DNA from: a bacterium
GTDB lineage: Bacteria > Patescibacteriota > Minisyncoccia > 2-02-FULL-40-12 > IGHO2-12-FULL-4
NCBI GenBank assembly: GCA_030647955.1
Contig: JAUSIQ010000004.1
Coordinates: 36,533-100,532, forward strand
Length of the DNA: 64,000 nt
Direction of reading: 5' to 3'
The notes below the pieces were generated by a model. That model had not been told where the DNA came from, did no database searches, and saw nothing but the letters and a program-made list of their open reading frames with translations. Of the stretch, positions 51,020-54,148 are shown piece after piece (within the stretch, counting starts at the first letter, position 1; each line of letters starts with the position of its first letter). The position numbers were made by a program, and so were the translations under genes.

Positions 51020-54000
51020 ATGAAGGAATCTTCTCAAAAATTTGCAGATTATTACAAGAAGCTGAATGCGGAGCAGAAGGCGGCAGTGGATACGGTGGAA
51101 GGACCGGTTATGGTGATCGCCGGACCGGGAACGGGTAAGACACAGGTGCTTACTTTGCGCGTGGCGAACATTTTATTAAAAACCCAGGTGAATCCGGGGA
51201 ATATTTTGGCGATGACTTTTACAGAAAGCGGAGCGGCAGAAATGCGCCAGAGGCTTTCGGCGATTATTGGCCGTACCGCTTATCAGGTCAATATTTTTAC
51301 CTTTCATAGTTTTTGCAACGACCTCATTCAAACCTACCCCGAAGAATTTCCGGCGATTTTGGGGCGCAAACCGTCCAACGAAATTGAGCAAATCGAGCTG
51401 GTTAAAAAAGTAATTGACGAGACTGATTTGAAACTACTCCGGCCCTTTGGAGAAACTTATTTTTATCTGCGTGAGGCGAGAAGGATGATCAGTCATCTTA
51501 AGCGTGAAGGTGTGGGTCCGGAGGATTTTCGGAATCGTTTAGCGAAAGAAGAAAAAGCTTTTGCGGCGATCGACGATCTTTACTACGATTCCGGCCGTTA
51601 TAAAGGGAAGATGAAAGGAAAATATACAGACTGGAAAAAACAGATTGATAAAAATGTGGAGCTTGCGGAAATGTATCGCGGCTACCAAGAGGCTTTGGTG
51701 GAGGCGAAGCAATACGACTACGACGATATGATTTTAGAAGTAGCCAAGACTCTGGCAAAAAACGAATCATTTCTTCTTCGTCTTCAGGAACAGTTTCAAT
51801 ATTTTTTGGTGGACGAACATCAAGATACCAACAATGCTCAAAACAAAGTACTGGAATTGTTGAGTGGTTTTTTTGATCAGCCTAATTTGTTTGTGGTGGG
51901 GGATGAGAAGCAAGCAATCTTTCGTTTCCAGGGCGCCAGTTTGGAAAATTTTCTCTACTTTAAAAAACTTTATCCGGGAGCGAAGTTAATTACCTTGAAG
52001 AGCAATTATCGCTCGACCCAGCCCATTTTAGATGCGGCGCATGATCTGATTGGTAATAACCAGCGAAAACTTTCCGATGTTTTGGAGGGGGTGGCGGAGG
52101 GTTTGGTTTCAGCTACGGTGCATCCTAAAAAATTAGTCGAGGTTTATTCCTTTAAACAGACCGAGGCGGAGCATTATTTTGTCTCTCAAAAAATTTCTGA
52201 ACTATTGAAAGAGGGAATCTCTCCGGAAGAAATTGCGGTAATCTATCGCGATAACCGCGATGCCTTTGAAGTGGGTGGAATGTTGGATAAGCACGGCGTT
52301 CCTTTTAGAGTGGAGTCTGGAGAAAATATTTTAGCTAGTTTGGAAATTCGTAATCTCATTAACGTTTTACGCTTTTTAAACGACTTCTCTTCGGAGGAAA
52401 AATTGTTTGAAATTTTGAGCACTGATTTTTTAGGAATCCCCGCTTTGGACGTTTATCGACTTCATGCCCCGGGAGTGCGCAGTGTTTCTTTGTTGGAGCT
52501 ATTGCAGAGTGAAAGACGGTTGCAGTCAGCGGGAGTGGAGCAGATTCAAAAAGTAAAGACGTTGGGTGAAAACCTTTTACGCTGGCAGAAGTTATCCCGA
52601 AATACGGGCCTGCTCACGCTTTTTGAAACGGTGATTAGAGAATCCGGATTTCTGGCTACCTTACTGGCGCAAAAAAACTCGGCGATTGGGTTAACGAGAC
52701 TCGAAGCACTCTTTCGAGAAGTGAAAAGATTAGTATTTAATCATCCTCAAACTACTTTGGCGGATTTTGTGCGCTATCTGGATAATTTGGAAGAGCATCA
52801 AGTGGGCATCAAAGCGGGAGCTTTGGGCTATACTCCGAAAGCAGTGCGTTTAATGACCGCTCACGGCGCCAAGGGCTTGGAATTTGATCATGTCTTTATC
52901 GTAAACTGTTTTGATGGACACTGGGGTAATCGTCGTATTCCTAAATTAATTAAGCTGCCAAGCCTTGGCCTATCCACCGACAACACCTCCCCTCACCCAG
53001 ACCCGGGGAACCAGTCCCGTCGGTTCCCCCACCAGAGTGGGTCCCCCTCCGCTACTGGGTACGGGGAGGAGTTGTCGGTTCTAGGGGGGGGATCCCCGGA
53101 ATTAGATGATGAGCGACGACTCTTTTACGTTGCCATCACTCGTGCCAGAAAAATGGCTTACCTTTCTTATGCTTTACAAGGAACCAATCAAAAGACCCAG
53201 TCACCTTCTCAATTTTTGGAAGAAATTAAACCAGAGCTGAAGGGTAAAGGAGAGGTTTCGATCTACGAAGAAAGATTGGAAAAAAATCGCGCCATATTTT
53301 ATGAAGCTCCGCGCAGTCCGGGTTTTTCCATTTTCGAAAAAGATTATCTCAACGAGCTGTTTTATCGCCGCGGATTGTCGGCCACGGCGCTGAATAATTA
53401 TCTCGCTTGTCCATGGCGATATTTTTATCTTAATCTGCTGAAAATCCCGCGAGCGAAAAGTAAGTCGCAGATGTACGGCACGGCTGTGCATGCCGCCCTG
53501 AAAGATTTTTTCAATGCTTTAAAGGATGGCCAACCCGATTTGAATTTTCTTCTCGAACGCTTTAAAGAAGCTTTAGAGAAAGAACCATTGCTGACTCAAG
53601 AAGCGGCTCAAGTTTTAGTCCGAGGAAACGAAGTTTTAGCGGCTTACTATAATTTTTACCAATCCCGGTTCAGCGCGTATGCTACTCAAAACGAGTTTAA
53701 AGTTACGGGAGTGACACTGGAAGTGGGCGGAAGACAGATTAATTTAACGGGGTCTTTGGATAAGATTGAATATCTGGCCGGAGGGAAAGAAATGAACGTG
53801 GTGGATTACAAAACCGGAAAACCACGAACCCGCAATGAGTTGGAGGGCAAGACTAAAAACGCTACGGGAGATTACAAAAGACAGCTTACTTTTTACAAGC
53901 TACTTTTAGATGAAATGCCCGGGTTTTCGGCCAAAATGATTTCAGGAGAAATAGATTTTGTGGAACCGGACAAAAGCGGCAAGTTTCATAAAGAGAGATT

Positions 54001-54148
54001 TACGATTGAAGCGACCGAAGCCCAAGAGCTAAAAGCTATAGTAGTTAAAACTGCCGAGGAAATTATTAGTTTAGGTTTTTGGGACGGCGGCTGTCGGAAG
54101 CGGGATTGCGAATTTTGCCAATGGCGAATAAATTATGCTAGGGTTTGA
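51020..54148 (+). CDS. UvrD/PcrA-type SF1 helicase fused to a C-terminal PD-(D/E)xK nuclease with a 4-Cys (Fe-S, Cas4/AddB-like) cluster
   Basis: Helicase motifs AGPGTGKT, TFT, VDEHQDTN, GDEKQAIFRFQGA, NYRST, KGLEFDHVFIV, RRLFYVAITRAR. C-terminal LACPWRYFY...GSLDKIEY...VVDYKTGKP...QLTFYKLL...CRKRDCEFCQW. A GC-rich insertion of about 45 aa lies at 52975-53100. Confidence 0.8.
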   Translation: MKESSQKFADYYKKLNAEQKAAVDTVEGPVMVIAGPGTGKTQVLTLRVANILLKTQVNPGNILAMTFTESGAAEMRQRLSAIIGRTAYQVNIFTFHSFCNDLIQTYPEEFPAILGRKPSNEIEQIELVKKVIDETDLKLLRPFGETYFYLREARRMISHLKREGVGPEDFRNRLAKEEKAFAAIDDLYYDSGRYKGKMKGKYTDWKKQIDKNVELAEMYRGYQEALVEAKQYDYDDMILEVAKTLAKNESFLLRLQEQFQYFLVDEHQDTNNAQNKVLELLSGFFDQPNLFVVGDEKQAIFRFQGASLENFLYFKKLYPGAKLITLKSNYRSTQPILDAAHDLIGNNQRKLSDVLEGVAEGLVSATVHPKKLVEVYSFKQTEAEHYFVSQKISELLKEGISPEEIAVIYRDNRDAFEVGGMLDKHGVPFRVESGENILASLEIRNLINVLRFLNDFSSEEKLFEILSTDFLGIPALDVYRLHAPGVRSVSLLELLQSERRLQSAGVEQIQKVKTLGENLLRWQKLSRNTGLLTLFETVIRESGFLATLLAQKNSAIGLTRLEALFREVKRLVFNHPQTTLADFVRYLDNLEEHQVGIKAGALGYTPKAVRLMTAHGAKGLEFDHVFIVNCFDGHWGNRRIPKLIKLPSLGLSTDNTSPHPDPGNQSRRFPHQSGSPSATGYGEELSVLGGGSPELDDERRLFYVAITRARKMAYLSYALQGTNQKTQSPSQFLEEIKPELKGKGEVSIYEERLEKNRAIFYEAPRSPGFSIFEKDYLNELFYRRGLSATALNNYLACPWRYFYLNLLKIPRAKSKSQMYGTAVHAALKDFFNALKDGQPDLNFLLERFKEALEKEPLLTQEAAQVLVRGNEVLAAYYNFYQSRFSAYATQNEFKVTGVTLEVGGRQINLTGSLDKIEYLAGGKEMNVVDYKTGKPRTRNELEGKTKNATGDYKRQLTFYKLLLDEMPGFSAKMISGEIDFVEPDKSGKFHKERFTIEATEAQELKAIVVKTAEEIISLGFWDGGCRKRDCEFCQWRINYARV
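52977..53078 (+). repeat. GC-rich in-frame element inside the helicase gene, bounded by a 15/16-bp inverted repeat with nested hairpins
   Basis: CCGACAACACCTCCCC pairs with GGGGAGGAGTTGTCGG. Inner stems GGGGAACC/GGTTCCCC and CACCCAG/CTGGGTA. It encodes a G/S/P-rich insert between the helicase motif V-VI region and motif VI, a position that is normally contiguous in UvrD. Confidence 0.5.

Follow-up and report, generated by a model that had tools for sequence, protein, structure and literature searches.

We analysed a 64,000-nucleotide (nt) stretch of a Patescibacteria contig (the whole of this stretch is called the window below), in which a gene for a helicase-nuclease carries a 105-nt GC-rich palindromic insert at positions 52976-53080. 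This insert is very probably a copy of a dispersed, non-coding palindromic repeat of Patescibacteria (Candidate Phyla Radiation, CPR) and Aminicenantes, lying in frame in the gene. The family to which it belongs is scattered in many copies, the arms of which covary, and several copies are read through in unrelated genes. In orthologues of the helicase gene the element occurs in either orientation, close relatives retain remnants of it, and the insert maps to a predicted disordered loop of a protein whose catalytic motifs are intact. Its point of insertion would be a permissive loop at the surface of helicase domain 2A, in the interval from motif V to motif VI. With a length divisible by three and no stop codon in the frame of the host gene, the copy should be transcribed and translated with the gene, yielding a 35-residue disordered loop rich in proline, glycine and serine. 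Our verdict is that such repeats probably form a new family of in-frame palindromic selfish elements, comparable to those of Rickettsia.

The insert and its repeat family

GC content reaches 0.65-0.70 over the insert in 100-nt intervals (window mean 0.44, standard deviation 0.065), and its 25-nt arms (52976-53000 and 53055-53079), which are 88% complementary, enclose a perfect 8-bp hairpin. The original prediction, made from the sequence alone, had described GC-rich nested inverted repeats, and this description holds. It had placed the insert at 52975-53100, limits that have to be replaced by those given above, and the 51-residue peptide that it quoted spans 52955-53107. The RNA fold of 166 nt at the insert has an energy of -77 kcal/mol (z = -2.8 relative to dinucleotide shuffles, none of which was as good), and the loop DNA folds with z = -5.3 relative to mononucleotide shuffles. 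A covariance model matches the window at 52968-53087 (101.8 bits, E 7e-24). No tRNA or tmRNA was found in the window, no Rfam family was matched at gathering threshold in the window or in 10 loci, and when the window copy, a long CPR copy and one from Aminicenantes were searched in the permissive E-value mode, Rfam gave matches at chance level only.

In the protein, the distance from HWGN[RK] to [DE][DE]ERRL is 57 residues, against a family baseline of 25-26 residues (a canonical spacing of 10-15 residues had been assumed initially, which is too short). The motif V-VI loop varies from 21 to 72 residues among 80 homologues, about 12 of which exceed the mode of 25-26 by 10 residues or more. An AlphaFold2 model built from a 32-sequence alignment has a mean predicted local distance difference test score (pLDDT) of 81.9, and the score falls below 50 in three segments only, namely residues 651-692, 1-3 and 296-307. 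Residues 651-692 have no secondary structure in this model and lie between a strand (622-627) and the motif VI helix (693-707), so that the prediction for the insert is a disordered loop on the surface of domain 2A. Because all catalytic motifs are intact, the helicase-nuclease gene most likely still works.

The 23-nt core of the element, GGGAACCAGTCCCGTCGGTTCCC (window 53006-53028), has exact matches in at least 120 stretches when contigs of one genome per species are searched. Among the matches listed, most are in metagenome-assembled genomes (MAGs) of Aminicenantes, and others are in Yanofskybacteria, Woykebacteria and Desulfaltia; MAGs labelled 'uncultured Eubacteriales' also carry the core, with flanks that match Aminicenantes flanks. 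Single MAGs contain at least 8-10 copies of the core, and many copies are located at contig ends. Similarly, 62 stretches of metagenome DNA match a 34-nt CPR-specific variant of the core; one 371-kb contig has at least 10 of them and another contig at least four. Covariance model R1 retrieved about 83 sense copies in the collected CPR loci, about nine of them with variant cores. Judging by their sequences, the CPR copies are a subfamily of their own (CCCAGACCC ... CTACTGGG), distinct from the Aminicenantes copies. The earlier suggestion of a small hairpin element resembling transposable elements of the miniature inverted-repeat type (MITEs) or repetitive extragenic palindromic (REP) sequences is thus strongly supported, with the core at well over 100 unrelated loci and orthologues differing in orientation and frame. 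No exact core match was found in viral contigs, the paper library that was searched yielded no match to the core sequence, and a search there on miniature inverted-repeat elements in the CPR returned nothing relevant. Peptide-level searches were also blank, both for a concatenated insert-peptide query against an index of 5.8 billion proteins and for the 35-residue insert compared by phmmer with 1.84 billion representatives; such peptides are too short, of low complexity and frame-variable for searches of this kind.

Family members are about 105-125 nt long, with arms of 20-25 nt around the core, and share a common plan. Outermost is a stem of about 16-25 bp that varies in sequence among copies. 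It is followed by an inner helix (CCCAG/CTGGG in CPR, CCCCCG/CGGGGG in Aminicenantes), the core hairpin GGGGAACC-AGTCCCGTC-GGTTCCCC and a second hairpin, which is not constant in length but invariably has CCC...GGG as its closing pairs. The C-rich strand of the core reads NCCCCYTCCRCTA (..CCCCYTCCRCTA). All 16 outer-stem pairs covary among 32 non-redundant CPR copies: there are 209 double-change cells, whereas shuffling gives 82 and none of 500 shuffles reached the observed count. Pairing amounts to 87% and drops to 27-57% if the 3' partners are displaced by 1-3 columns. The covariance model also recovered copies without the exact core, in which the apical hairpin shows compensatory GGAAACC/GGTTTCC variants and, in some cases, small hairpins inserted in its loop. 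In addition, insertions and deletions are mirrored in both arms at orthologous sites (for example in L135 compared with L175; loci are labelled L followed by a number). On the core strand, arm mismatches in CPR copies (L130-L191) comprise 51 A:C and 8 G:T, and the complementary strand folds better (summed energies of -1564 against -1392 kcal/mol); in Aminicenantes the corresponding counts are 56 and 45, with no strand bias. Either function or mutational bias may underlie the CPR asymmetry; in the former case it would identify the strand whose hairpin is active, be it as single-stranded DNA or as antisense RNA.

Other small repeats are nested in some copies (L026 ~4395-4535, L132 2635-2771, L157 5178-5300 and L172 10376-10507). 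In L026 a segment of about 130 nt lies within the second hairpin, and in L132 and L157 a CTGCCTGCCGGCAGGCAGG palindrome is found in, or in place of, the apical loop; the genomes concerned seem to hold several interacting small-palindrome families. In the most frequent subfamilies, the 110-nt element forms the middle of a longer, imperfect palindrome of about 200-250 nt with conserved outer parts, which are CCCTCCACCCCAACCCCCGACT ... GGGTTAGGGTG in CPR (L141 4400-4700, L153, L160, L164, L167, L182) and CTAATACGAACGC ... GCGTTCGTATTAG in Aminicenantes (L013, L016, L022 and others).

Copies in helicase orthologues and in other genomic settings

We fetched the DNA of seven relatives of the helicase gene. 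In all orthologues with long loops, the loop DNA forms a strong hairpin (z -2.7 to -7.5), and that of the short-loop L008 forms none. The same element occupies the loop in three loci: the window, L002 (protein 59% identical) and L001 (67%), which share CCCRGGGAACCAGTCCCGTCGGTTCCCC...TCCCCCTCCGCTAYTGGG almost letter for letter. L001 has the core on the opposite strand, and the covariance model matches the minus strand of this locus. Between the window and L002, conserved core segments are 94-97% identical at the DNA level (variable hairpin left out), against 61-62% for the flanking coding DNA (450 nt on each side) and 55-58% for the flanking protein. The core is read in different frames in these two genes, as PDPGNQSRRFP in the window and KPGEPVPSVPP in L002. 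Conservation thus acts on the nucleic acid and not on the protein, because the DNA core is kept while frame and peptide differ. Remnants persist in the two closest orthologues that seem to lack the insert: L008 retains the left arm and CACCCAGACCCGGGG, and L129 retains CCCCCTCCACTACTGGGTTCAAGGG and the right arm, which are different parts of the element, both in the L001 orientation. The comparison of orthologues called for at the outset thus gave two loci with the element (L001 and L002), two with remnants, and none in most family members.

These observations bear on two rival explanations. One holds that the 35 extra residues are an ordinary lineage-specific GC-rich loop, selected as protein. 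The wide range of loop lengths among the 80 homologues is compatible with it, and a peptide shared by orthologues over non-palindromic DNA would have pointed the same way. The opposite was found: the DNA element is shared, and the peptides differ in frame and orientation. Moreover, the core is found at well over 100 unrelated, mostly intergenic loci that are not fragments of the helicase gene, and AlphaFold2 gives the insert no structure, so we regard this explanation as highly improbable. The other rival is an assembly or binning artefact, by which a foreign GC-rich repeat was spliced into a CPR contig. The repeat is indeed GC-rich in an AT-rich genome and abundant in Aminicenantes, which are richer in GC. 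Assemblies also frequently break or are joined wrongly at repeats, and many copies are at contig ends. However, the helicase site is occupied in three independent assemblies (an NCBI MAG, Logan SRR22387992 and ENA ERZ28563660), with remnants in two more, the reading frame is kept exactly, and CPR copies group apart from Aminicenantes copies. An artefact is extremely improbable in our opinion.

Copies within genes are not restricted to the helicase. Seven of the 71 CPR copies are located deep within long open frames, with one more borderline case, and all are read through in frame. According to Pfam, the hosts include UvrC (L176 4260-4377 and L190 1200-1317, as well as L178 1126-1243, where the copy is at the same site, has the same length of 38 residues and lies in the opposite orientation), RecG (L180), a family 2 glycosyltransferase (GT2; L151) and Wzy_C membrane proteins (L159/L144 and L184). 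As a side observation, three in-frame hosts are DNA-repair genes (UvrD-like helicase-nuclease, UvrC and RecG). The core is stop-free in five of six frames, stops being contributed by the AT-richer arms, and frames are open in 56% of cases for intragenic copies against 32% for intergenic ones. This bias is as expected if only in-frame, stop-free insertions survive, which implies that the element is translated and not removed. Removal before the mature protein, either as an intron-like RNA or as an intein-like peptide, would agree with the very stable RNA structure, and CPR bacteria are known for insertions in their rRNA genes. Yet every intragenic copy is in frame and stop-free in the frame of its host, the frame bias is that predicted by translation, no intron or ribozyme family was matched, and 35 residues are far too few for an intein. 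We hold such removal to be very improbable.

The remaining CPR copies are intergenic and mostly located just downstream of genes; of 33 such copies, 19 against 6 are downstream and co-oriented with the gene, 7 are between convergent genes and one is between divergent genes. For most intergenic copies, the core strand is the sense strand of the neighbouring genes. A role as terminator was considered and rejected, as no consistent T-run follows the hairpin across copies and a terminator scan of the locus gave scores at the level of shuffled sequences. A broader explanation is that the hairpin is, or has turned into, a functional cis element in mRNA or DNA (a translational pause site between motor and nuclease, a signal for RNA stability or processing, or a cruciform to which a protein binds). 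The family would then be a structured non-coding RNA or single-stranded DNA motif and not purely selfish DNA. Several results fit it: the core is near-invariant across phyla and its helices are kept through compensatory change, the excess of A:C over G:T mismatches in CPR arms makes the opposite strand fold better, intergenic copies are co-oriented downstream of genes and almost never between divergent ones, and the core is far better conserved than the coding DNA (about 61%) around it. On the other hand, no Rfam family corresponds to the element, and the occurrence of both orientations at orthologous sites is hard to square with a strand-specific role in mRNA. The closest helicase orthologues let the element decay and most family members have no insert at all, the hairpin lacks a consistent T-run, and the strand asymmetry is absent from Aminicenantes copies. 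A cis-acting function is thus, in our assessment, decidedly unlikely as the main explanation.

Possible mobility and points on both sides

Evidence of mobility comes from one set of homologous sites. L149 and L191 carry the element right after a stop codon, and the homologous site of L167 is empty. The inserted unit corresponds to the whole hairpin, arms included, and is flanked by TAG...TAG in L191 and by TAG...CAG in L149, which hints at a 2-3-bp target duplication at this site. Insertion into a pre-existing palindrome, such as a terminator hairpin, was rejected for this site, as the empty L167 locus has no palindrome. We also rejected an autonomous parent element in copies that are interrupted after the core (such as L026), which hold a nested small repeat and not a gene. 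Orientation was never flipped in the 19 pairs of orthologous occupied sites with flanks at least 90% identical. Below this level, four of nine comparisons were flipped, corresponding to two independent events, and the helicase gene provides a third; a flipped intergenic case is that of L135 and L171 compared with L175.

The occupied and empty sites suggest present or past mobility of the element, moving as an entire hairpin. It may invert in place via recombination between its arms, or alternatively undergo repeated site-specific re-insertion, and arm-to-arm conversion could keep the arms complementary. The conserved core would be recognised on one strand by a trans-acting mobilising enzyme. 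In addition, we noted that L138 581-696 shares the right arm and right flank with L147 2914-3029 and L150 1265-1380, the left ones being different; these sequences may have recombined at the element core, or been joined there as an assembly chimera.

Several results weigh against our interpretation. Consistent target-site duplication was not found, and the window and UvrC copies have no flanking direct repeat. Clustering of open reading frames (ORFs) in the 2-14-kb flanks of the copies revealed no transposase or other mobilising gene, the ORFs that recur being syntenic housekeeping-like genes only. The 64-kb window contains no second copy (pattern search with three mismatches, blastn and covariance model), so that the search for further copies proposed initially succeeded only elsewhere, in the stretches described above. 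Furthermore, four helicase orthologues (L003, L005, L006 and L007) have strong, mutually unrelated palindromes in frame in the same loop. We rejected these as members of the family, as they show neither a covariance-model match nor blastn similarity, and no second copy of any of them was detected in its own flanks; a permissive loop accounts only loosely for several different palindromes in one loop. The insert is presumed to be translated, and the protein to be active. Finally, a core conserved across phyla, with arms that change fast and yet remain paired, is the reverse of the usual MITE pattern, and a structured RNA or single-stranded DNA function beyond selfish spread may therefore exist.

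The dispersed palindromic repeat inserted in frame nevertheless has the large probability stated at the outset. A bolder proposal would make the three-helix core an active module, either a recognition structure for a single-strand-specific mobilising enzyme or a catalytic or regulatory RNA, transferred horizontally between Patescibacteria and Aminicenantes. Its carriers would then be a new class of flipping hairpins with arm-to-arm conversion, which would give essential repair proteins (UvrD-like helicase-nuclease, UvrC, RecG) alternative, switchable surface loops. We put this forward as tentative and rather unlikely.

Host gene, neighbours and known systems

The host gene encodes a 1042-residue protein with two parts (Table 1). 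Both helicase models of Pfam exceed their thresholds (UvrD-helicase with 219 bits, E 1e-64; UvrD_C with 146 bits), and the nuclease model PDDEXK_1 scores 98.5 bits (E 8e-28). In an alignment of 32 sequences (the host protein and 31 homologues), invariant residues include Walker A (G35-T41), motif II (D265-E266-x-Q268-D269) and motif VI (R699-R700 ... T707-R708), in agreement with the superfamily 1 (SF1) motor described as intact. The nuclease residues D914, D929, K931, Q955 and Y959 (including the QxxxY motif) are also invariant, as are four cysteines (C797 and C1025/C1030/C1033). An iron-sulphur (Fe-S) nuclease had been proposed: the PD-(D/E)XK residues and the 1+3 cysteine arrangement agree with this, but the cysteine spacing is C-x4-C-x2-C instead of the C-x2-C-x5-C of Cas4 and AddB, and a Cas4 model scores 30.9 bits, below its cut-off of 65. 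It may be an Fe-S nuclease of the AddB, Cas4 and Dna2 type, should its 1+3 cysteines bind a 4Fe-4S cluster.

Table 1. Coordinates of the element, its parts, the host gene and related features (window positions unless a locus is named)
Feature	Position	Strand	Description
Upstream neighbour	49818..50531	+	Predicted 3'-5' exonuclease, Pfam DNA_pol_B_exo2 / RNase_H_2
Host gene	51020..54148	+	UvrD/PcrA-type SF1 helicase with C-terminal PD-(D/E)XK (AddB/Cas4/RecB-type) nuclease, 1042 residues
Helicase part, with insert inside	51062..53173	+	Pfam UvrD-helicase residues 15-318, UvrD_C residues 324-718
Inserted palindromic repeat element	52976..53080	+	105 nt, codons 653-687, TDNTSPHPDPGNQSRRFPHQSGSPSATGYGEELSV; core in gene sense
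Left arm	52976..53000	+	Last 5 nt CCCAG (52996-53000) form inner helix P1 with CTGGG 53055-53059
Conserved apical hairpin GGGGAACC-AGTCCCGTC-GGTTCCCC	53005..53029	+	Perfect 8-bp stem, 53005-53012 / 53022-53029
Variable second hairpin CCCAC-CAGA-GTGGG	53028..53041	+	Length and sequence vary among copies, pairing kept
Conserved C-rich single-stranded segment TCCCCCTCCGCTA	53042..53054	+	
Right arm	53055..53079	+	Complement of 52976-53000
PD-(D/E)XK nuclease domain	53375..54127	+	Pfam PDDEXK_1, residues 786-1036
Downstream neighbour	54176..54823	+	3'-5' exonuclease-like, PDB 7t2s E 2.5e-12
Unrelated palindromes in helicase loop	L003 4945-5121; L005 3439-3594; L006 4854-4964; L007 4939-5043		Fold z -2.7 to -7.5

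At E <1e-30, a search of protein sequences gave more than 7,800 homologues. Those listed have the same domain set and are typically about 990-1000 residues long, and the named ones are Patescibacteria helicases. Solved PcrA, UvrD, AdnB and AddA chains match the host protein by sequence, Foldseek aligns it over its full length to AddA, RecB and AdnB, and in sequence and fold comparisons its motor groups nearest PcrA/UvrD. It misses all four NCBIfam equivalog cut-offs (pcrA, 357 against 911 bits; uvrD, 271 against 1144; addA, 170 against 861; recB, 165 against 696), and is a distinct CPR-wide family outside these equivalogs. We read the host as a probable housekeeping repair helicase-nuclease of the CPR; its description as a single-chain helicase-nuclease is correct, with an architecture that is ordinary and not novel. 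Indeed, AddA, RecB and AdnA/AdnB are single-chain helicase-nucleases too.

Similarity to defence helicase-nucleases, which had been raised as a possibility, was not borne out. The PADLOC matches to GajB of the anti-phage system Gabija (E 2e-83) span the generic UvrD core only, and the neighbouring genes are exonucleases, with no GajA (OLD-family nuclease) nearby. A sporadic defence helicase was likewise rejected, as Patescibacteria have thousands of homologues with this architecture, and three orthologous loci also contain the upstream exonuclease gene.

The two genes reported as exonucleases on either side of the host gene are indeed exonuclease-like (Table 1), the downstream one by a PADLOC exonuclease model as well (E 8e-25), with no Pfam match. 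In addition, a 114-residue ORF without family match (50585-50929) separates the upstream exonuclease gene from the helicase gene. This upstream gene also precedes the helicase gene in L002 (355-681), L005 (46-753) and L007 (562-1269), and its presence in several CPR lineages suggests a functional pairing with the helicase-nuclease.

Elsewhere in the window, two copies of a 38-nt palindrome (TGCTTTATAAAnnTAGCAT-ATGCnAnnTTTATAAAGCA; 57799-57836 and 58587-58624) bracket a GC-rich segment of about 750 bp, which has a GC content of 0.69 at 57962-58262 and contains overlapping ORFs (57795..58286 on the minus strand, 57945..58334 on the plus strand). This segment may be another small mobile unit. Other GC-rich islands lie at 56730-56887, 60229-60454, 60987-61160, 62196-62335 and 62498-62552 (GC up to 0.73, against 0.44), and tight hairpins are found at 60356-60390 (17-nt perfect arms) and 62498-62552 (26-nt arms).

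As regards known systems, the host protein shares with PcrA/UvrD and AddA/RecB/AdnB a UvrD-type SF1A motor with all motifs, and it resembles AddA/RecB/AdnB in its C-terminal fusion to a RecB-family PD-(D/E)XK nuclease. Like the Fe-S nucleases AddB and Cas4, it has four cysteines in a 1+3 arrangement around the nuclease fold, with a different spacing. Unlike AddA, RecB and AdnB, it is adjoined by two small exonucleases, and no AddB, AdnA, RecC or RecD partner was seen adjacent to it, none having been specifically searched.

For the element itself, three types of small repeats are relevant. REP sequences and REPINs associated with RAYT (Y1 HUH), as well as palindromes derived from IS200/IS605, are also short, GC-rich, many-copy hairpins located mostly just downstream of genes. 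The GTAG/CTAC tetranucleotide of REP/REPIN and IS200/IS605-derived elements is present in the conserved part of our element, and the strand-dependent quality of its hairpin points to action on a single strand. However, no RAYT or TnpA was found near the copies, in a search covering their 2-14-kb flanks. REP sequences are genome-specific, whereas the present core is identical across phyla; they are also simple doublets and extragenic by definition, whereas our element has three helices and is sometimes intragenic.

MITEs (Correia/CREE, ERIC, RUP, BOX, Nezha) likewise measure less than 300 bp, do not code for protein, exist in many copies and end in inverted repeats, and the pair of L149/L191 with L167 behaves like an insertion. 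Typically, MITEs have conserved terminal inverted repeats matching those of a parent insertion sequence (IS), a variable interior and a defined target-site duplication. The present element is small, non-coding and found in many copies, but it has variable ends and a conserved centre, no parent IS with which it would share conserved terminal repeats was found, and it shows no consistent duplication. An identical core across phyla, arms that change fast yet stay paired, and recurrent flips are each not obviously explained by MITE or REP models. If our reading holds, the family would offer a fresh system for studying how such elements move and why proteins tolerate them. There is a practical side too: assemblies break at the element, ORFs are inflated by it and CPR proteins receive spurious loops of low complexity, so that a covariance model for it would improve annotation.

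In-frame palindromic selfish DNA in coding genes has been a Rickettsia curiosity for 25 years. If our reading is true, the present elements would be a second, unrelated case, in the small-genome CPR, and the phenomenon would be general. Ogata et al. reportedly described Rickettsia palindromic elements (RPEs) in 2000 as inserted in frame in many genes. In our element, the in-frame, stop-free copies of the helicase-nuclease, UvrC, RecG, GT2 and Wzy_C genes are similar to RPEs, translation being inferred. PMC10969869 describes RPEs as palindromes of about 100-150 bp, in frame in many genes and translated, in a host with a reduced genome, and gives nearly half of the copies as intragenic in some families; occasional in-frame intragenic copies are also reported there for ERIC and other small repeats (PMC10969869). 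On this description, both elements are small palindromes with in-frame copies in unrelated genes that do not destroy the host protein, and with other copies between genes. They differ in their hosts (Rickettsia against Patescibacteria and Aminicenantes) and are likened by description, a sequence relationship not being expected. About one in 10 CPR copies is intragenic, against nearly half for some RPE families (PMC10969869). Furthermore, the present element has no conserved peptide, as several frames and both orientations are used, and it conserves a central structured core, with arms that change fast. On this likeness, we would class it as an analogue of RPEs and not as a member.

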